Shown: one piece after another, positions 1-58,112 of the stretch | How positions within the stretch are numbered: the first letter of the stretch is position 1 | Layout: every line of letters begins with the position of its first letter | DNA from: Pseudomonadota bacterium | GTDB taxonomy: Bacteria > Pseudomonadota > Gammaproteobacteria > JAKBBU01 | Direction: 5' to 3' | DNA: 59,509 nt | Assembly: GCA_021808365.1 (NCBI GenBank) | Contig: JAKBBU010000005.1 | Coordinates: forward strand, 1 to 59,509 | Translations under genes and position numbers: made by a program | The notes under the pieces: model-generated | The model's input: only the letters and a program-made list of their open reading frames with translations | The model's database searches: none | Told to the model about the DNA's origin: nothing

Positions 1-56
1 CTATAGGAAATTTTTCTAAGAGGGTGTTATGATTGAAAAATACGTAAATTTTTATT

Positions 57-164
57 TTTATAGCATTTGTCATATTTATTAAATACAGAGAAAGCTGCGC
101 CAATACGTGTTGTGGTATTGGCGCAGCTTTCTCTGTATTTAATAAATATGACAAATGCTATAAA
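57..164. repeat. Perfect inverted repeat, 50-bp arms with 8-nt loop GTGTTGTG
   Basis: 57-106 is the exact reverse complement of 115-164; homologous to 11518-11605. Confidence 0.95.
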
Positions 165-201: not shown

Positions 202-2043
202 CTATCCCAACTCCTCACACAAACGTAACCATTGTGCCTCAATGGTTTCTTGTTTTATACGGCTTTCTTTTTGGTCAGCTAAGATCATTTCCACCTGTTT
301 AGGATCAGCGCCATTCTGGTATAACAGCGGATCAGCCAATTGATGTTCCAATTGTTTCAAGTGTTCATTGATTTGTGCTAATTGTATCTCGAGTTTTTTT
401 AATTGGTCCAGAGACGATTTTTTAATTGATGCAGGAGTATCGGAGGATTTCGTAAGTTCTTTTGGTAAATCTCTGCGAAATTCTTGAACCCAACGCTCAT
501 AATCGGCCAAGTCGCCATCAAAGGGTGTTACTTTTCCATGTGCAACCAATAAAAATTCATCTGCAGTTGTTCGCAATAAATGACGATCATGCGATACTAA
601 GACAACTGCCCCTTCATATTCTTGTAAGGCCAAGCTTAAGGCTGCCCGGATGTCGATATCGAGATGATTCGTGGGTTCATCGAGCAAGAGAAGATTGGGC
701 CGTTGGTAAATGATCATGGACAGGGCCAAGCGTGCTTTTTCACCGCCCGATAACGATCCGACGAGCTGAAACGCTTTATTATGATCAAAGGCAAACCGGC
801 CCAAATAGGTTCGAATTTGTTGTTCAGACAATTTAGGATCTAATCGATGTAAATGTAAAAAAGGTGTTGCAGCTAAATCAAGGTATTCAAGTTGATGCTG
901 CGCAAAATAACCAATTTCCAATTTTGGATGGGCCACAGATGATCCGCCGAGTGCAGGTAATTGGCCTGCAAGAAAAGTCATCAAGGTTGACTTTCCTGCG
1001 CCATTGACGCCGAGCAGGCCCAGTCGTGTGCCGGGGTTTAAACTAAAACTCACTTTATTTAAAATGATATTGCCATCGTAGCCCAGATCAATACGATCCA
1101 AAGCTAACAAGGGATTGCCACTTGCTTTGGGCGGATAAAATTCAATATGAAATTCTGATCGTGATTGAATCGCACTCAATTGAGGTAATTTTTCAAGGGC
1201 TTTCATGCGGCTTTGTGCTTGTTTTGCTTTTGAGGCTTTTGCTTTAAAGCGATCAATGAATGATTGCATATGTGCACGCGCACGTTCTTGTTTTTCATAA
1301 GCACTTTGTTGCAGTGCTAATTTTGAATCACGTTGTTCTTCAAAGCGGTCATAATTGCCTTTGTAAAAATTGAGCTGCTGATTTTCAACATGAATGATGT
1401 GATCAATCGTTTGATTTAAAAAATCACGATCATGCGAAATCAATAATAAAGTACCGGTATACGCATTCAACCATTTTTCAAGCCAAATGACGGCATCCAG
1501 ATCCAGGTGATTTGTGGGTTCATCCAGCAGTAATAATTGAGAACGGCACATGAGGGCGCGGGCGATGTTTAATCGAACACACCATCCGCCTGAAAAAGCG
1601 GAGACAGGTTTATTCATATCAACGACATGAAACCCAAGTCCATGCAACATGCCGGCTGCGCGTGAATGAGCGGTGTAACCGTCAATGGTCGCGATTTTTT
1701 CATGGATGTTTGCGATTTTCATGCCGTCATTATCTTCGAGGGCTTGTTCAAGGGCCTTTTCGAGTTCGGCGAGTTCGCGATCGCCCTGGATCACATAATC
1801 AACGGCAGACGTTGAAACGCGAGGTGTTTCTTGTTCCACATGCGCAATTGTCCAATGGTTGGGGATCTCAAGTTCACCCGCATCCACAGGGCCTCGATCG
1901 CAGAGCAAGCGAAAAAAGCTGGTTTTTCCACAGCCATTGGGGCCAATGATCCCAATTTTGTGGCGATCGTGAATATCGAGGCTGACGTCTTTGAGCAAGA
2001 GTTGCGTACTGCGACGTAGGGAAAGGTTTTTTAATCTAATCAT
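202..2043 (-). CDS. ABC-F family ATPase (YheS-like)
   Basis: Two ABC domains (GPNGCGKT, FSGGW, LLLLDEPTNHLD; GVNGAGKS, LSGGEK), no TM segments, C-terminal coiled coil; start chosen at MIRLKNL. Confidence 0.9.
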   Translation of the reverse strand: MIRLKNLSLRRSTQLLLKDVSLDIHDRHKIGIIGPNGCGKTSFFRLLCDRGPVDAGELEIPNHWTIAHVEQETPRVSTSAVDYVIQGDRELAELEKALEQALEDNDGMKIANIHEKIATIDGYTAHSRAAGMLHGLGFHVVDMNKPVSAFSGGWCVRLNIARALMCRSQLLLLDEPTNHLDLDAVIWLEKWLNAYTGTLLLISHDRDFLNQTIDHIIHVENQQLNFYKGNYDRFEEQRDSKLALQQSAYEKQERARAHMQSFIDRFKAKASKAKQAQSRMKALEKLPQLSAIQSRSEFHIEFYPPKASGNPLLALDRIDLGYDGNIILNKVSFSLNPGTRLGLLGVNGAGKSTLMTFLAGQLPALGGSSVAHPKLEIGYFAQHQLEYLDLAATPFLHLHRLDPKLSEQQIRTYLGRFAFDHNKAFQLVGSLSGGEKARLALSMIIYQRPNLLLLDEPTNHLDIDIRAALSLALQEYEGAVVLVSHDRHLLRTTADEFLLVAHGKVTPFDGDLADYERWVQEFRRDLPKELTKSSDTPASIKKSSLDQLKKLEIQLAQINEHLKQLEHQLADPLLYQNGADPKQVEMILADQKESRIKQETIEAQWLRLCEELG

Positions 2044-2092
2044 TCGTGCATTATCCCAGATTGGGTTTATTATTGCCATTTATTCTGCATGA

Positions 2093-9240: not shown

Positions 9241-11376
9241 CTATATAATTGAACCGAATGAGTATTTAGGCATAGCTGAGAAATTTTCCTTTAAAAAAAT
9301 AGAATTTGAATAAGCATTGTTTAATTGCTGGAAATAAGCTGATTTTACAATTTCTTTAAATTCTGGAAATTCTTTTAGATTTTTTGATTGACGAGTGTTG
9401 TGTAAAATATTTTTAATTTTAGTAACAGGATGTTCTTCTCTGAAAAGATTGGGAGAGTACCTAACTTCGTACAGTTTAAGTTCGTCTATAAAATCATTAT
9501 AAGTTAGCCTATCAAGAAGAAGTATTTTTGAAAACAAATCTAAAAGTTTAAAATCATCACCTTTTTCAGTGCTTACTAATAATTTAACAGCCTCAACTTT
9601 ATTGTTTTCTATCGCAACTGCAAGAGGTGTTTTTTCTTGAAAATCTTTTTTGTGAATGTCGGCTCCTTTTGCAATCAAGTATCTGGCAAGCTCAAGATGC
9701 CCTTGTCGAACAGCAAGTAATAAGGGTGTTTCCCCATTTTTATTTTGTTTGTCAATAAGGCTAATATCTTGTTCAATGAAGTATTGAGCAATATGCAGTT
9801 GTCCACTTTGTGAGGCGACAAAAAGAGGTGTTGATTGCTCATCATTTAACGCATTGAGAGATGCACCTTGCTCAATCAAATATTTAACAACATTTAAATG
9901 ACCTTTTTCTATCGCAGAATAAAGAGGTGTTTTTCCATCAACAGCAATGTTTATAAGAGCTCCTTTTTGAACAAGGTACTTTAAAAGCTCTAAGTGACCA
10001 GAGGCTGCGGCGGACCAGAGTGGTGTTACGTTACCTGCTGTAAGAGCATTAAATATCGCTCCCTTTTCAACAAGATATTTGACAATATCGAAGTGACCAT
10101 TTTGTGCTGCCAAATGAAGAGCTGTCCAACCTCTATTGTCTTGTTCGTTTATTGAGGCACCTTGCCCAATCAGATGAATTACTTCATTGAAGTGGCCAAA
10201 CATTGCGGCAATAAGGAGTTGTGTTGCACCAAAAGTATCTTTTTGGTTAGCATGACGATCACTATCTTTTTGAATTTCATCGATGGTTGACTTCCAATCA
10301 GTCATAAAATTATTTACAAGTTCTTTCGAATCATGAAAACATGAAATGGTTGTTGAGAACGAAATAAATCCGTTCGATCCAAAGGATTCTAAAATAGCCG
10401 CTGCAATATTGTCGATTCCTCTTGTTAACGCATGAATTTTGTGACTATTAAAAAGATACAAGTCATTTGAACACGGGTCATACCAAACTAAAACGGCATG
10501 ATTGATGTTTCTTAATTTAAGGCAGATAATTTGATCTTTATTGATGGACTTATTATGGGTGTTGAGTTTATTAAGTTCATTAAGAACTTTACTAAAGTCG
10601 TTTGGGTCATTATTTGAATCATCGGAGTTATCCAATAGATCATCAGAGTCATCAAACGGATCATCAGAGTCATCAAATGGATCATCGGAATTACCAAATG
10701 GATCATCGGAATTCTCAGACAGCTCATTAGGGTTGTCAGATGGATCATTGGGATCCTCAATCACACAAAATGAATCAAGTAAATTGGGTATGGCGGACTG
10801 GGCTAGCTGTTTATTTTTTATGTTTTTTTCAATACTTTCTTGAAAAGAAGAAAGATATTTTTTTAAATTTCCCTCGGTATAAAGACCCGAAAAAGAATAG
10901 TCCAAATCAACAGGAGGATTTTCTTCTAGTTGTTTAGGCAGGGTCAATCTTGCAGCTTGGATAGGATCTTGGGGCGCAACATTTGTCTCAATAAGGAATT
11001 GAACCGCATCGGTTGATTGGTATATTTTTACAGCATTAAAAAATGCGGGAAGTTCTGAAGCAATAAAAATAAAACATTCTTCAAGATTTAAAGGTTCTTG
11101 AGATTTAAATTTTTCTAAAATCTCATCAATTCTAGTTTTTTGAGTTAAAGGGTTTTTTTTGTAAACCTTATCAAAATAGGGCAGAATGATTTCTGGTAAA
11201 TTGCTGATTAAAAAATTAATTCTAAAAAGAAATAAATGCGGTTCAAAGCAAAAGATTGCTTTTTCTAAAATATTGGTGAGTGCTTCACAAATTCCAACTT
11301 TCGCTTCATTGCTGAGAATATTCAGAGCAATACCATGGTTAACAACTAGATCATGAGCTTTTACGGGATTAGTCAT
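9241..11376 (-). CDS. Ankyrin-repeat protein, candidate secreted effector
   Basis: About 7 ankyrin repeats (GWTALHLAAQNGH, TPLWSAAASGH, GETPLLLAVRQGH); AT-rich; start at MTNPVK is a guess. Confidence 0.85.
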   Translation of the reverse strand: MTNPVKAHDLVVNHGIALNILSNEAKVGICEALTNILEKAIFCFEPHLFLFRINFLISNLPEIILPYFDKVYKKNPLTQKTRIDEILEKFKSQEPLNLEECFIFIASELPAFFNAVKIYQSTDAVQFLIETNVAPQDPIQAARLTLPKQLEENPPVDLDYSFSGLYTEGNLKKYLSSFQESIEKNIKNKQLAQSAIPNLLDSFCVIEDPNDPSDNPNELSENSDDPFGNSDDPFDDSDDPFDDSDDLLDNSDDSNNDPNDFSKVLNELNKLNTHNKSINKDQIICLKLRNINHAVLVWYDPCSNDLYLFNSHKIHALTRGIDNIAAAILESFGSNGFISFSTTISCFHDSKELVNNFMTDWKSTIDEIQKDSDRHANQKDTFGATQLLIAAMFGHFNEVIHLIGQGASINEQDNRGWTALHLAAQNGHFDIVKYLVEKGAIFNALTAGNVTPLWSAAASGHLELLKYLVQKGALINIAVDGKTPLYSAIEKGHLNVVKYLIEQGASLNALNDEQSTPLFVASQSGQLHIAQYFIEQDISLIDKQNKNGETPLLLAVRQGHLELARYLIAKGADIHKKDFQEKTPLAVAIENNKVEAVKLLVSTEKGDDFKLLDLFSKILLLDRLTYNDFIDELKLYEVRYSPNLFREEHPVTKIKNILHNTRQSKNLKEFPEFKEIVKSAYFQQLNNAYSNSIFLKENFSAMPKYSFGSII
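10596..10760. repeat. Degenerate 21-nt tandem repeat encoding acidic heptads (SDDPFDD)
   Basis: About 8 degenerate units such as GATCATCAGAGTCATCAAACG. Confidence 0.85.
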
Positions 11377-11435
11377 TTTTTTCTTCTCTAATTGAATTAA
11401 TGTTTTTATTTGAAATTGTTCAAAGAACAAGGAAC

Positions 11436-11468
11436 ATCATACCATCCAAACATTAAGAAGACATTAAG
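11436..11468 (-). promoter_or_regulatory. PmrA-like box and -10 element upstream of the ankyrin gene
   Basis: Minus strand reads CTTAA-TGTCTT-CTTAA-N11-TATGAT. Confidence 0.6.
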
Positions 11469-11517
11469 AATTGATCATTTTTTGCTTCTTATTGAATTTG
11501 TAAATAATTTTTTATCG

Positions 11518-11605
11518 CATTTCTCACATTCATCAAACAGTAAAGGATTGCCAATGCATGTTGTGGCATTGGCAATCCTTTACTGTTTGATGAATGTGAG
11601 AAATG
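11518..11605. repeat. Perfect inverted repeat, 40-bp arms with 8-nt loop ATGTTGTG
   Basis: 11518-11557 is the exact reverse complement of 11566-11605. Confidence 0.95.
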
Positions 11606-11617
11606 GAATAACATGAT

Positions 11618-11645
11618 CCACAACACCCTTTTCAGGGTGTTGTGG
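11618..11645 (-). terminator. 12-bp stem-loop after ORF 11681-12604, possible terminator
   Basis: CCACAACACCCT-TTTC-AGGGTGTTGTGG; no clear U-tract. Confidence 0.45.
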
Positions 11646-11680
11646 GTTGGATGAATTGTTTCTTTTGAAAGGCAAGAATT

Positions 11681-12604
11681 TTACCCGCCTGCCTGTGAGA
11701 AACCTCTAAGTTTGTCAGCAGAGATTTCAGCGCGAGTGTTATCAACTTGGGTGGCCTGATTAAATAAACTTATGCCTTTTTGCATCAATGCGGTACTGGC
11801 AATACTCAAAGGTGTAGATACAACTGTCCCTATAATCGTGCCAACTCCTCCGGTGGGTATCGTTGATACAAGGCCAGCTAGCCCAATGATCCCACTCAGA
11901 ACAACACCTGCAAGGCCAACTAATGCTATTGTTCCACCAAGTAATTTTTCAAAAGATGGACCGTGTAGCGCATTAACGGATGCTATGTAAGCTGTTTTTG
12001 CCTCTTCGCTTTTTTCACGAACCAAGGTTTCAGTGACATTTAAATGTGCGACAACGTCATTTTTTTTATTTGGCGAATCTTTCACTAATTTTTGTGCTGT
12101 GTCTATGACTTTAACAGACTGTTCGATCATGGTTAAGCCGCTTGCACCGTTGCCTGCTTCTTGGAAAGATGTTCTTAGCAATCTATATTGTGCCTCGATT
12201 AGAGGGTCTATTTTTTGCTTTTTAATTTCAGCAATAGCACCTTGGACATAAATTTCTAATAAGGGTTGAGTATCCATATGGCCCGCAACCAGGGCTGTTT
12301 GAGTAAAGTACTGAGTCAATTCATTTTGGCTAAGATCGCGATTGCTCAAAAGTGCATCAAGTAAAAGATTAATTACCCCTTCCTGATGAGAGGCGATCTT
12401 AGAAAGATCCCGATCAATTTGTTCGCTATTCTGTTCAGCAACTGCTGATCTTAAGTTAGTGTCTGCCTCGAACCAGTGTTTCACTTTGTCGTCAGAATAA
12501 CGATTTTTTTTAAGTTCTTTCTCAATTTGTTTAAGTTGTTCCGGGCTGCGTGGCGTGGAAAATTTAGCTTTTAAATTTTGAATATTGTCTTGAAATGTTG
12601 GCAT
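11681..12604 (-). CDS. Hypothetical protein, coiled coil plus C-terminal Gly-rich hydrophobic segment; candidate effector
   Basis: 307-aa ORF with good RBS (AGAGG); no recognised family. Confidence 0.7.
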   Translation of the reverse strand: MPTFQDNIQNLKAKFSTPRSPEQLKQIEKELKKNRYSDDKVKHWFEADTNLRSAVAEQNSEQIDRDLSKIASHQEGVINLLLDALLSNRDLSQNELTQYFTQTALVAGHMDTQPLLEIYVQGAIAEIKKQKIDPLIEAQYRLLRTSFQEAGNGASGLTMIEQSVKVIDTAQKLVKDSPNKKNDVVAHLNVTETLVREKSEEAKTAYIASVNALHGPSFEKLLGGTIALVGLAGVVLSGIIGLAGLVSTIPTGGVGTIIGTVVSTPLSIASTALMQKGISLFNQATQVDNTRAEISADKLRGFSQAGG

Positions 12605-12764: not shown

Positions 12765-12839
12765 TGGGGTGTCGCCAAGCGGTAAGGCACGGGGTTTTGA
12801 TCCCCGCATACCTAGGTTCGAATCCTAGCACCCCAGCCA
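12765..12839 (+). tRNA. tRNA-Gln (TTG)
   Basis: TGGGGTG...CACCCCA acceptor stem, CGGGG-TTTTGAT-CCCCG anticodon arm, GGTTCGAATCC, encoded CCA. Confidence 0.98.
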
Positions 12840-20525: not shown

Positions 20526-20645
20526 TGTCTCAATGGTGTTGATTGTTTTTCAGAATTTGATTTTACAAACCAATCGCCAGCATGGATGTATTAACGGCGT
20601 GTTTGTAAAATCAAATTCTGAAAAACAATCAACACCATTGAGACA
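20526..20645. repeat. Perfect inverted repeat, 45-bp arms with 30-nt loop
   Basis: 20526-20570 is the exact reverse complement of 20601-20645. Confidence 0.95.
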
Positions 20646-23729: not shown

Positions 23730-23735
23730 TCTATA

Positions 23736-23917
23736 ATCCTAAATTCGGCAGTTGTAATCTACTGCAGAGGGCTAATGCATTGAACCTAGACATTTTTTTA
23801 GTATTTTTTAGCTTCACCGTAGGGGTGTCTACTGTCTTGCTAAAAAATACTAAAAAAGCTGCCTATCTTCAGCGCCTTAGCCCTCTTCGCTACGATTCCA
23901 ACTGCCGAATTTAGGAT
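23736..23917. mobile_element. MITE-like imperfect palindrome of about 180 bp between convergent cca and dsbB
   Basis: 19-bp perfect terminal IR ATCCTAAATTCGGCAGTTG, plus internal IRs AGAGGGCTAA and TTTTTTAGTATTTTTTAGC. Confidence 0.7.
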
Positions 23918-23938
23918 AATGCAAAAAACTTGCCCGAA

Positions 23939-42117: not shown

Positions 42118-42183
42118 TGTCATCCCGGAATTTAGTGGCTCTTCGCGCGTACTCGCTAAGAACCGCTAAATCCCGGGATGACA
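42118..42183. repeat. TGTCATCCCGG...CCGGGATGACA palindromic repeat
   Basis: 66-bp imperfect hairpin; related copy at 57908-57977. Confidence 0.85.
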
Positions 42184-57863: not shown

Positions 57864-57871
57864 AGTAGAGT

Positions 57872-58032
57872 CAGGGCTATTGGGTTAAAAGTTAATCATT
57901 TTTGGTCTCGTCATCCCGGATATTAAGTCGTTCTAAGCGTGAGTACACGCAAGAACGACTAAATTCCGGGATGACGAAGCCCAAAAATGTCATCTTTTCG
58001 AAAAATGATTAACTTTTAACCCGATAGCCCTG
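57872..58032. mobile_element. MITE with CAGGG ends (ISAs1-like) and a nested palindrome
   Basis: 32-bp TIRs with 1 mismatch; 10-bp direct repeat AGAGTAGAGT at 57862-57871 and 58033-58042. Confidence 0.85.
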
Positions 58033-58112
58033 AGAGTAGAGTTTAGTTGCAGTTCTTAATAAAATAGTATATACTACAAATGTAGCGTTTTACTACTTTT
58101 GAGAGAAAAATC

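Follow-up and report, generated by a model that had tools for sequence, protein, structure and literature searches.

Arm symmetry in a family of long palindromic, MITE-like hairpins that diverge between copies in a bacterial draft genome

How can two related hairpins differ from each other along their arms when each remains perfectly paired within itself? The window analysed here (the whole stretch of 59,509 nt) holds two such hairpins, each with an asymmetric 8-nt loop. A sequence-only reading had described them as perfect and homologous and had offered two explanations: selection for a long double-stranded RNA or cruciform, or regeneration of one arm from the other. Both hairpins were recovered, as 2 of 79 copies genome-wide, and the family as a whole allows the explanations to be weighed.

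Two hairpins and their genomic family

The following features of the window enter the argument.

57–164, plus strand: hairpin copy 1, perfect 50-nt arms (57–106 and 115–164) around the loop GTGTTGTG at 107–114
107–114, plus strand: the conserved asymmetric 8-nt loop GTGTTGTG
61–160: the element proper of copy 1 under the TA-duplication reading, with TA at 59–60 and 161–162
202–2079, minus strand: open reading frame with its stop 38 nt from copy 1, which lies on its 3′ side
9241–11430, minus strand: ankyrin-repeat protein gene (Pfam Ank_2, 2.5e-65) downstream of copy 2; context only
11512–11611, plus strand: hairpin copy 2, perfect 40-nt arms (11518–11557 and 11566–11605) around the loop ATGTTGTG at 11558–11565
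11513–11514 and 11609–11610: putative TA duplication of copy 2
11681–12604, minus strand: 307-aa open reading frame next to copy 2 on its upstream side, without a Pfam match; given for context
20526–20645, no strand assigned: one copy of an unrelated second hairpin family, with perfect arms of 45 nt and a 30-nt core

The TA reading at copies 1 and 2 is carried over from nested insertions elsewhere in the genome, described below. In a repeat search of the window, the 50-nt arms of copy 1 were 100% complementary around the 8-nt loop, and the full arms of copy 2 (11512–11557 and 11566–11611) were 46 nt long and 96% complementary, with two mismatches at the hairpin base, outside the perfect 40-nt-arm portion at 11518–11605. 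Folded as single-stranded DNA, copy 1 reaches −55.6 kcal/mol (z = −19.1) and copy 2 −47.9 kcal/mol (z = −17.5), and none of 200 shuffled controls folds as well. In two further samples of the same study, independent Logan contigs (assembled sequence rather than raw reads) agree with 11518–11605 at every letter, with no single piece spanning the whole hairpin: those from runs X2 and X3 cover 11058–11547, 11528–11595 and 11576–12500 with no other letters. Runs X2–X4 carry no variant in copy 2, and run X5, from another study, covers only 11705–12317 at low depth and so misses the hairpins.

The gene downstream of copy 2 does encode an ankyrin-repeat protein, as the sequence-only reading had it, and the hairpin ends 88 nt upstream of its listed TTG start. 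The only Rfam match in the window is a tRNA at 12765–12836. The shared orientation of the two hairpins and their position 3′ of a minus-strand gene hold for this pair and fail as properties of the family, in which 40 copies lie on the plus strand and 39 on the minus strand. Of the two stretches seen upstream of both hairpins, GTAAAT is not conserved family-wide, and TTTTATmG is just the element's own end.

The family comprises 79 copies, spread over many contigs of a 1.85-Mb draft genome, and around five that have decayed; the core motif proposed from the two hairpins has 70 occurrences genome-wide when up to three mismatches are allowed, and a reversed control pattern has none. Copies span about 60–116 nt, made up of two arms of 25–54 bp and the 8-nt loop, and carry no transposase gene. 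The loop GTGTTGTG, common to all 79 copies with some variants, was exact in 61 of the 67 copies of a first census. Nothing in the family is better conserved than this loop and the inner 7–9 bp of the stem (invariant columns 24–26, 30, 32–36 and 39–41 of alignment A1); outside this invariant asymmetric tip and conserved inner stem lie a variable middle and moderately conserved ends (TARCATTTCTC...). The ends TTATARCATTTCTC and GAGAAATGYTATAA were found independently on both arms in 27 of the 79 copies, 2 of these 27 rows being mis-registered. They are AT-rich (TTATAGCATTT), and the stem base has no conserved GTAG or CGTC tag; an internal GTAG occurs only in copies with the variant GTGTAGC, the others having GTGCAGC. 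We saw no growth of the palindromes into their flanks, pairing past the consensus end running for just 0–3 nt, which is the chance level. The tip resembles a lox-like site, with inverted 7–9-bp arms around an 8-bp asymmetric spacer. The only insertion found within a family copy is another small MITE.

The majority of copies occupy intergenic DNA close to gene ends, in either orientation, with 4 of the 64 classified copies in convergent intergenic regions against about 11 expected from summed intergenic length. Nine of the 79 lie less than 200 nt from a contig end, and several contigs stop within a hairpin.

The family had not been recognised from the two hairpins, and it matched neither Rfam at the gathering score nor anything outside this genome. 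In public collections from which records of the genome itself were possibly left out, a 22-nt core had no match among genome contigs, and a 20-nt core had four matches among metagenome contigs, none of them a long hairpin or matching this genome, which we read as chance. The only other genome of the same taxonomic family and order (G001) had nothing resembling the family, whether searched by pattern, with BLAST or with model R1 at E values up to 1. Against a sample of 150 other genomes of the class, which may or may not include Coxiella, model R1 gave one 38-bit match (G118), a single terminator-like hairpin sharing ...TTGTGGTATTGG, also read as chance. The hairpins are a palindromic MITE/REP-like repeat, an already known category.

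Pairing within copies and divergence between them

The claim that the arms diverge between copies and stay paired within each, made from two hairpins, extends to the whole family: across the 79 copies, 2,965 positions are paired, 54 are mismatched and 12 are gaps. The arms match throughout in 44 copies and keep mismatches in 35, with 0, 1, 2, 3, 4 and 9 mismatches or gaps in 44, 21, 7, 2, 4 and 1 copies, respectively. Several lines of evidence bear on how this pairing is kept.

First, each arm resembles its own partner more than it resembles other copies. In a comparison of a fixed 25 nt per arm, picked regardless of pairing in 78 copies, arms differ at a mean of 1.17 positions within a copy, 8.65 between copies and 3.92 to the nearest copy. 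Within-copy differences are zero in 49 of these 78 copies, and the partner is strictly the closest arm genome-wide in 63, with 9 ties. Over whole arms of 70 copies, the median pairwise divergence is 30.6% and the nearest-neighbour divergence 15%, against a mean within-copy mismatch of 2.4%. Isolated copies, at 19–33% divergence from their nearest neighbour, are still perfect across 36–49 bp.

Second, the arms covary strongly. In an analysis of 35 copies out of 79, pairing holds in 97.4% of 924 cells compared with 77.1% in shuffles, a value that none of 500 shuffles reaches; 204 of the 924 cells are changed on both sides and only about nine are wobble cells. Compensated departures number 424, including 151 transversions, and uncompensated ones 91. 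Indels are mirrored across the arms as well, up to about 10 nt, as in the copy at C22:57116, which lacks about 10 nt in each arm and is still perfect. Transversions, multi-base indels and the rarity of wobbles would be hard to reach by stepwise selection, and the mirrored transversions and indels argue for DNA-level copying of one arm rather than selection on an RNA structure.

Third, the remaining arm/arm mismatches cluster at the hairpin base, within the final 6 nt of the arms, as would follow from switch-and-return copying, which has no flanking pairing there. Correction is not universal, given that one old copy (C62:3697) has three mismatches in its inner 30 bp.

Fourth, the second hairpin family, which serves as a control for a process at the level of the host, shows the same behaviour. 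Genome-wide, its 10 paired copies all have zero arm/arm differences in the 18 distal nt, and between copies a mean of 8.2 of these 18 nt differ (45%). The SbcC Walker-B model has no match in this 99.76%-complete genome (12 of 14 control genomes match), nor does the SbcD_C model, so that, judged by two Pfam models in a draft genome, SbcCD appears to be absent. The ExoI C-terminal domain likewise has no match, by a weak model that matches only E. coli among the 14 controls; ExoVII is present. The second perfect-arm family and the failure to detect SbcCD favour a host-level template-switch process.

We therefore think it somewhat probable that the family is a lineage-specific, non-coding, roughly 100-bp palindromic MITE-like element, inserted at TA, with arms mirrored by DNA-level copying in place. 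Most likely, the symmetry is kept while copies drift by one arm being recopied from the other during DNA replication. The likely route is quasi-palindrome correction, with the replication fork switching templates intramolecularly, or an equivalent repair acting on the hairpin once folded, by which a new substitution or indel in one arm would be either erased or mirrored; copies would then drift apart at a roughly neutral rate and stay perfect. A genome apparently without the hairpin nuclease SbcCD could tolerate such long perfect palindromes, and the invariant tip and ends are probably needed by a putative mobilising enzyme. The data require no host function for the hairpins. There is precedent for the process: in the available parts of two papers, template switching perfects quasi-palindromes in E. 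coli (Klaric, Perr & Lovett 2020, PMC7202029) and can create and maintain hairpin stems (Monttinen & Loytynoja 2022, PMC8794818). Of the two original alternatives, arm regeneration by template switching is thus the better supported. The copies of this one genome do not separate copying in place from regeneration at each transposition.

Mobility and rival explanations

Six copies (on contigs C21, C51, C14, C62, C20 and C22) diverge by only 0–2% and have unrelated flanks, near-identity at different loci that indicates recent mobility. One young copy lies within the arm of an older copy, whose arm resumes past a duplicated TA, and a GTAG REP holds another, with the TA arranged in the same way. 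These two nested insertions, the only such cases, suggest duplication of a TA target, and insertion is probably at the TA within a TTAA site. Correia and RUP elements duplicate TA. Direct repeats of at least 3 nt were absent from the 24 copies checked, some of which are mis-registered; TA being itself a palindrome, its duplication would be hidden within the arms. Five of the 79 copies are in frame, deep inside open reading frames with Pfam domains on both sides: mutL, a recB/addA-like gene, mnmE, nlpC/P60 and a GH94 glucan-synthase-like gene. The mnmE orthologue of a sister genus lacks the hairpin segment.

No enzyme could be assigned to this mobility. The sequence-only reading had proposed looking for a HUH or RAYT, reverse transcriptase or resolvase gene alongside the hairpins; none of the first three was found beside one. 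The single RAYT (NF047646, 194 bits, C67:24205–24741) was rejected as the cognate enzyme: a GTAG REP of 138 copies, with the core GTAGGTTGGGTTAGC, lies on either side of it, and its contig carries no GTGTTGTG hairpin. Two IS110-family transposases are present (C12 and C8), and no IS110-family gene or IS end lies beside or in a hairpin genome-wide. One group II intron reverse transcriptase and one unclassified reverse transcriptase were set aside, neither being near hairpins. Neither TnpB nor a cognate HUH enzyme was found in the genome, and DDE_3, for IS630/Tc1-type transposases, had no matches. In a search for a parent IS, conducted in a draft that lacks the interiors of multi-copy IS elements, no solo arm flanked a transposase gene and the IS ends at contig ends were unlike the hairpin ends. 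None of the genes between paired hairpins is a transposase; read by eye, their translations are housekeeping-like. The genome also has six tyrosine-recombinase matches.

A possible, if unlikely, account moves the arm copying from the resident element to its transposition. One arm and the tip would be heritable, and each jump would make the second arm from the first: a nick at or close to the asymmetric loop could prime fold-back synthesis, or an intermediate in the form of a single-stranded hairpin could undergo mismatch repair. Copies would be perfect at birth, then decay and be lost, and their symmetry would reflect the young age of copies within an old and diverse population of lineages. 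The defect counts per copy are over-dispersed relative to a Poisson distribution and fit a geometric one, which argues against a simple equilibrium of mutation and correction and is what perfection at birth, decay with age and turnover predict. Consistent with the same account, decayed copies and solo arms exist, every member of the very young subfamily is perfect, the invariance of the loop and inner stem hints that the tip is a recognition site, and the lack of a visible target duplication of at least 3 nt fits single-strand enzymes. By contrast, the nested insertions point to TA duplication, typical of double-strand cut-and-paste enzymes, and the candidates for a single-strand enzyme fall away with the missing HUH and TnpB and with a lone RAYT that has its own GTAG REP. 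The usual trace of single-strand transposition, an orientation bias relative to GC skew, is not seen (27/13 versus 28/11, p = 0.81). Furthermore, mismatches are not spread evenly but gather at the hairpin base, very isolated copies are perfect over their 36–49 bp, and the equal perfection of the unrelated second family, with a 52-nt core, would require the same special mechanism twice.

We give little credence to selection on structure, in which compensatory mutations would be selected to preserve a long RNA or DNA stem serving as an RNase III site, terminator, mRNA stabiliser or cruciform-binding site. The very strong covariation, the location of most copies near gene ends with few in convergent regions, and the poorer keeping of the terminal pairs, which matter least for stability, would all fit such selection, and compensatory changes are described for REPINs and bcr1 in the available parts of PMC3116915 and PMC3184786, respectively. 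Each mirrored indel, of up to about 10 nt, and each of the 151 mirrored transversions would, however, need two identical independent events, and the wobble intermediates are nearly absent. Nor is there the strand signature of an RNA: copies in tandem settings divide 20 versus 20 with respect to transcription, orientation shows no bias relative to gene strand (p = 0.39), and mismatches compatible with G:U are about as common on one strand (17, top) as on the other (22, bottom). Coding sequences harbour five of the copies, and copies adjoin unrelated genes, which by reading of their translations are housekeeping genes. The long double-stranded RNA put forward by the sequence-only reading accordingly finds no support in the even split of orientations or in the absence of gene-strand and GC-skew bias.

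A bolder form of regeneration, which we regard as a long shot, would make the family a new kind of replicator: only one arm and the tip are inherited, a putative tip-specific enzyme nicks the GTGTTGTG loop and fold-back rebuilds the second arm at each move, so that symmetry would be a form of transposition proofreading rather than a by-product of host replication, with the second family running on the same machinery.

It is very improbable that the hairpins are REPINs or REPs moved by the RAYT of this genome, or that they serve an IS1111/IS110 element as a target of the QMITE2 type. The RAYT and the two IS110-family transposases supply the enzymes that this idea needs. In the available parts of the respective papers, REPINs combine conserved parts with a variable hairpin-forming spacer and compensatory changes (PMC3116915), and the Coxiella repeat QMITE2 folds into a very stable hairpin and has a similar number of copies (PMC5896051). 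Against it, the RAYT is flanked by a different repeat (the 138-copy repeat with core GTAGGTTGGGTTAGC), the stems of the family lack a conserved GTAG or CGTC tag at their base, the hairpins are not adjoined by any IS110-family gene or IS end, and direct repeats of 7–11 nt were not found.

That an assembler or amplification step symmetrised or created the palindromes is scarcely credible: De Bruijn graphs at small k do collapse palindromic arms, and some copies lie at or near contig ends as noted above, but the same conserved tip recurs at 79 loci with unrelated flanks, the assembler left mismatches in 35 copies, five copies keep long reading frames open, and the independent Logan contigs from other samples match copy 2 exactly.

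Comparison with known systems

Our preferred reading, arm-to-arm copying in place, has a counterpart in the quasi-palindrome template switch (Ripley model; PMC7202029 and PMC8794818, in the parts available), which shares single-event rewriting of an arm, mirrored multi-base changes and perfect stems; its features present here are the mirrored indels, the 151 mirrored transversions and the rare wobble cells. Unlike the hairpin family, it is a mutational mechanism and not an element family; here it would recur on about 80 mobile hairpins of 25–54 bp. These amount to some 80 independent natural replicates, with arms of 25–54 bp and up to about 30% divergence, of an arm rewriting usually studied one reporter at a time. 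Strong covariation, usually taken as proof of a selected RNA structure, can evidently arise in DNA without the orientation or strand signature of an RNA, and covariation-based RNA discovery should take this as a warning. A genome that is rich in long perfect palindromes and apparently lacks SbcCD offers a testable link between a host's repair repertoire and the repeats it carries.

Among repeats, QMITE2 and small QMITE2 of Coxiella burnetii (Wachter et al. 2018, PMC5896051) are alike, in what the available part of the paper describes, in having about 50–78 copies that are non-coding, form very stable long hairpins, are mostly intergenic and sometimes overlap gene ends, and are restricted to a lineage, the small versions lacking discernible direct repeats. 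The same part associates QMITE2 with a GTAG REP, an insertion hot-spot for IS1111 and, in full-size copies, direct repeats of 7–11 nt, none of which was seen here. The two are set apart by the description of QMITE2 and not by sequence; the word 'compensatory' does not occur in the text of PMC5896051.

REPINs mobilised by RAYTs (Bertels & Rainey 2011, PMC3116915), as described in the part available, resemble the family in that a palindromic doublet forms one long hairpin present in tens to hundreds of copies. They differ in that the present family lacks REP sub-hairpins and a GTAG tag, the genome's one RAYT goes with another repeat, and conservation is highest at the tip. The TA-flanked MITEs, namely Correia, ERIC-type and RUP elements (PMC3184786, in part), are likewise small and non-coding, with terminal inverted repeats, TA at both ends and long stem-loops that are often 5′ of genes. 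Their arms, however, are imperfect and their termini best conserved, whereas here the whole element is a near-perfect palindrome with no parent IS visible.

For the copies in mutL, mnmE and other genes, the nearest parallels lie elsewhere. Rickettsia palindromic elements reportedly sit in frame in protein-coding genes, as do the 5 of 79 copies that are read through here; most copies of the present family are intergenic, in contrast, and the likeness is one of description and not of sequence. The in-frame copies would thus be a case of translated palindromic elements from outside Rickettsia. Coding palindromes of nematomorph (Nematomorpha) mitochondria are also long perfect inverted repeats kept in translated genes, although in another host and genome type and, as far as the available part of PMC6649704 goes, not as a dispersed mobile family. 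Set beside these systems, the hairpin family is an unusually clean natural case of a known kind of repeat.

The window hairpins and their genome-wide family

The draft genome G000, of which the window is contig C41 (C-numbers denote its contigs), comprises 1.85 Mb in 68 contigs, with 42% G+C and 99.76% completeness. An inverted-repeat search of the window delimits two related hairpins:

57-106/115-164: copy 1, 50-nt arms, 100% complementary, 8-nt loop
11512-11557/11566-11611: copy 2, 46-nt arms, 96% complementary, the inner 40 nt (11518-11605) perfect

Folded as single-stranded DNA, copies 1 and 2 reach −55.6 kcal/mol (z −19.1) and −47.9 kcal/mol (z −17.5), respectively, and 0 of 200 shuffles folded as well as either real copy. 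The sequence of copy 2 recurs, without one differing letter, in Logan contigs of two more samples from the same study (run X2, pieces 11058-11547, 11528-11595 and 11576-12500; run X3, pieces 10019-11547 and 11576-12197); this support comes from contigs and not raw reads, and no single piece crosses the whole hairpin, the pieces stopping within the arms because a k=31 graph must break at a palindrome.

The end of contig C23 (80440-80576) overlaps window positions 1-137 over 137 nt at 97% identity, and the sequences part only once inside copy 1's right arm; C23 and the window contig are probably neighbours in the genome, with the assembly broken in this hairpin. A tRNA gene (12765-12836; Rfam RF00005, 61.9 bits) lies just past the ORF upstream of copy 2, and three imperfect inverted repeats (27-34-nt arms, 76-93% complementary) are nested around 23794-23857, within 23733-23920.

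The core motif proposed by the sequence-only reading occurs genome-wide at 70 sites with up to three mismatches, compared with 0 for the reversed motif. Requiring the loop GTGTTGTG with at most one substitution and at least 9 of 12 adjacent pairs, we counted 79 copies, split 40 to 39 between the strands; a BLAST search using the arms as queries brings in about five more, which are decayed copies or solo arms. Arms range from 9 to 54 nt and are free of mismatches and gaps in 44 of the 79 copies; across the whole set, 2965 positions pair, 54 are mismatched and 12 are gapped. A contig end falls no more than 200 nt from nine of the copies, and in several cases a contig terminates within a hairpin, indicating that the hairpins break the assembly.

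Several lines of evidence bear out the original claim that copies diverge while each stays paired. First, for 78 copies we compared the 25 nt flanking the loop on each side, a fixed length chosen so that the stem was not defined by its pairing. The two arms of one copy differ at a mean of 1.17 positions (median 0; zero in 49 copies), whereas arms of different copies differ at 8.65 on average and at 3.92 from the nearest copy; the own partner is strictly the closest of all arms for 63 of the 78 copies, and in 9 more it ties for closest. Where an arm departs from the column majority, the partner mirrors the change in 424 cells (273 transitions and 151 transversions) and does not in 91. Second, when whole arms are compared in 70 copies, pairwise divergence has a median of 30.6% and nearest-neighbour divergence is 15%, against a mean within-copy mismatch of 2.4%. 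Third, in 35 of the 79 copies, a set given by the loci analysed and not picked for pairing, 97.4% of 924 cells are paired, compared with 77.1% in shuffles (0 of 500 as high) and 36-47% once the partner column is shifted; double-sided changes fill 204 of these cells and wobbles about 9. Finally, the copy at C22:57116 lacks around 10 nt of the consensus from both arms and still pairs perfectly, a mirrored indel.

Anatomy, mobility and placement

The element is most constant at its tip, where the loop and the innermost 7-9 bp are nearly invariant. Moving outwards, the next twelve or so base pairs are conserved and include co-varying positions; the mid-arm is highly variable, with at least two old subfamilies; and the outermost 14 nt, which read GAGAAATGYTATAA on the right arm, are shared between subfamilies. 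We infer that the invariant tip, together with the ends, is needed by the mobilising enzyme. Mismatches between arms cluster at the hairpin base, at 8.5% in the terminal 14 nt versus 3.7% in the interior (27 copies; per position 2,0,2,1,0,0,0,1,6,8,2,5,2,3); two of the 27 rows are mis-registered, which raises both rates, and without them our own arithmetic gives interior substitution of about 1% and a terminal rate of about 6.6%.

Six copies (C21:22637, C51:24502, C14:8103, C62:3781, C20:4479 and C22:6178) are 0-2% apart and flanked by unrelated sequence, showing that the family was mobile recently. At the ends of 24 copies, some of them mis-registered, no direct repeats of at least 3 nt were found. 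In C62, a younger copy is nested in the right arm of an older one, reading ...CTGATTA [young copy] TAATGT... where the partner arm predicts CTGATTAATGTG, which implies duplication of a TA within a TTAA; another young copy, C14:8103, has landed in the loop of a GTAG-tagged REP, again with T-TA-[element]-TA-A geometry. From these two nested cases, a TA target duplication is likely. TA at both ends is also typical of Correia and RUP MITEs. The same arrangement is described for ERIC-type bacterial MITEs in an excerpt of PMC3184786. We found no IS630-type transposase and no IS ends like those of the hairpin in the draft, from which multi-copy IS interiors are absent, contigs ending in shared 127-nt IS ends. 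A separate MITE, around 280 bp long and bounded by the terminal inverted repeats AACCTGAGTTATGGATAAG, occurs at C65:23044-23320, C12:28020-28350 and the starts of C58, C38 and C61; one of its copies is inserted in a young GTGTTGTG hairpin, of which the last 20 nt remain at C58:126-148.

On a crude ORF-based gene map, 40 copies lie between tandem genes, 20 between divergent genes, 4 between convergent genes, 10 at contig edges and 5 deep inside ORFs. Given summed intergenic lengths of 91.7 kb (tandem), 56.7 kb (divergent) and 30.1 kb (convergent), convergent regions are under-used, with 4 copies against about 11 expected. Loop orientation is split 20 to 20 in tandem settings and has no relation to GC skew (27/13 versus 28/11, p = 0.81) or to local gene strand (p = 0.39). 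The five intragenic copies read in frame, with Pfam domains on both sides:

C55:9582-9688: mutL, in the inter-domain linker of this mismatch-repair gene
C35:11259-11355: UvrD/PD-(D/E)XK recB/addA-like gene
C34:12931-13027: mnmE
C44:7920-7984: nlpC/P60 gene
C12 near 5398: 2855-aa GH94 glucan-synthase-like gene

The sense strand of all five carries CACAACAC; three are read in one frame (...GC[IT]N[AT]TTRI[DG]...) and the other two in another. The mnmE ortholog of the sister-genus genome G001 is without the hairpin segment.

Relatives, candidate enzymes and a second family

The family, unrecognised in the sequence-only reading, remained so: Rfam gave no match, and the searches run found nothing related outside G000. 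A 22-nt core had 0 matches in public genome contigs, and G001 had none by pattern, BLAST or covariance model. Four matches to a 20-nt core in a metagenome collection and a single terminator-like match among 150 other genomes sampled from the class were judged to be chance.

The co-occurring RAYT or reverse transcriptase gene that the same reading had thought worth seeking did not emerge as a partner. The one RAYT (NF047646, 194 bits; 178 aa) is flanked on both sides by different, GTAG-tagged GTAGGTTGGGTTAGC-type REPs, the gene and its REPs together spanning C67:24092-24900 (locus L041 1340-2150); the REP core has 138 copies on 44 contigs, some forming perfect 33-45-nt doublet hairpins. The RAYT was rejected on the ground of these flanking REPs. 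A group II intron reverse transcriptase and a second reverse transcriptase are located away from the hairpins, the two IS110-family genes show no association with them, and TnpB was not found in G000. At C12:28470-31727 (locus L042), a 422-aa IS110-family transposase gene lies between 253-aa and 178-aa opposite-strand fragments that look like pieces of a single, interrupted transposase gene from a different IS. Another repeat, with core GTCATCCCGG(A/G)ATTTAG, occurs at window positions 42118-42183 and 57871-58033 and on many other contigs; its perfect inverted repeats of 20-29 nt enclose a loop of 17-19 nt.

A second, unrelated hairpin family has copies at:

20526-20645: window copy
C22:76602, C45:32566, C67:30049, C11:25096, C65:1148, C68:32460, C9:5976, C11:1832, C15:3254, C61:8263: copies on other contigs

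These elements, of around 140 bp, have a conserved inner arm TTTTTCAGAATTTGATTTT, hypervariable distal arms and a core of 30-73 nt with its own small palindrome; 11 further matches to the motif are unpaired. Over 18 distal nucleotides, the arms show 0 differences in 10 of 10 paired copies, and the same positions differ between copies at a mean of 8.2. Equal symmetry in an unrelated family suggests a property of the host and not of one element. SbcC (Walker-B model, positive in 12 of 14 control genomes) and SbcD_C have no match in the 99.76%-complete genome, a lack that would let long perfect palindromes persist. The genome has the ExoVII large subunit; no match was obtained for the ExoI C-terminal domain, but among the controls that model detects E. 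coli only.

Origin of the symmetry and comparison with known repeats

Of the two alternatives raised by the sequence-only reading, a selected dsRNA found no support, no strand being marked as RNA, and copying of one arm from the other is the better supported: mirrored indels and 151 mirrored transversions call for copying at the DNA level. Intramolecular template switching at the replication fork would rewrite one arm from the other in place. Excerpts of PMC7202029 and PMC8794818 report, respectively, that template switching makes quasi-palindromes perfect in E. coli and that it can create and maintain stems. We favour such in-place switching over a model in which every transposition rebuilds the second arm and old copies turn over, because the symmetry of the second family points to the host, surviving mismatches lie mainly at the hairpin base, where switch-and-return lacks flanking homology, very isolated copies are still perfect, and the orientation bias left by single-strand transposition is absent. 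Regeneration, less favoured, would agree with the geometric-looking distribution of defects (0, 1, 2, 3, 4 and 9 in 44, 21, 7, 2, 4 and 1 copies), which is over-dispersed for a simple equilibrium, and with clearly decaying copies such as C62:3697 and C2:2961; no copying event could be polarised, orthologous copies lacking in the genomes compared. That the family is a fold-back replicator, which alone would make it a new kind of system, seems to us improbable. Stepwise compensatory evolution under selection for structure does not fit, since every mirrored indel and transversion would have to arise twice over in identical form, hardly any wobble intermediates are seen and no feature singles out one strand as a functional RNA.

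In kind, the family belongs with palindromic MITE/REP-like repeats. Among described systems, it comes closest to Coxiella QMITE2 (likened by description), to REPINs and TA-flanked MITEs, and, for the in-frame copies, to the RPEs of Rickettsia (likewise by description). Compensatory changes are already in print for REPIN hairpins (an excerpt of PMC3116915) and bcr1 hairpins (an excerpt of PMC3184786); within the limited collection searched, we found no paper linking bacterial MITEs to homogenisation of arms by template switching. What is noteworthy is how clean the arm symmetry is and on what scale it occurs, together with its recurrence in a second family and the in-frame copies.
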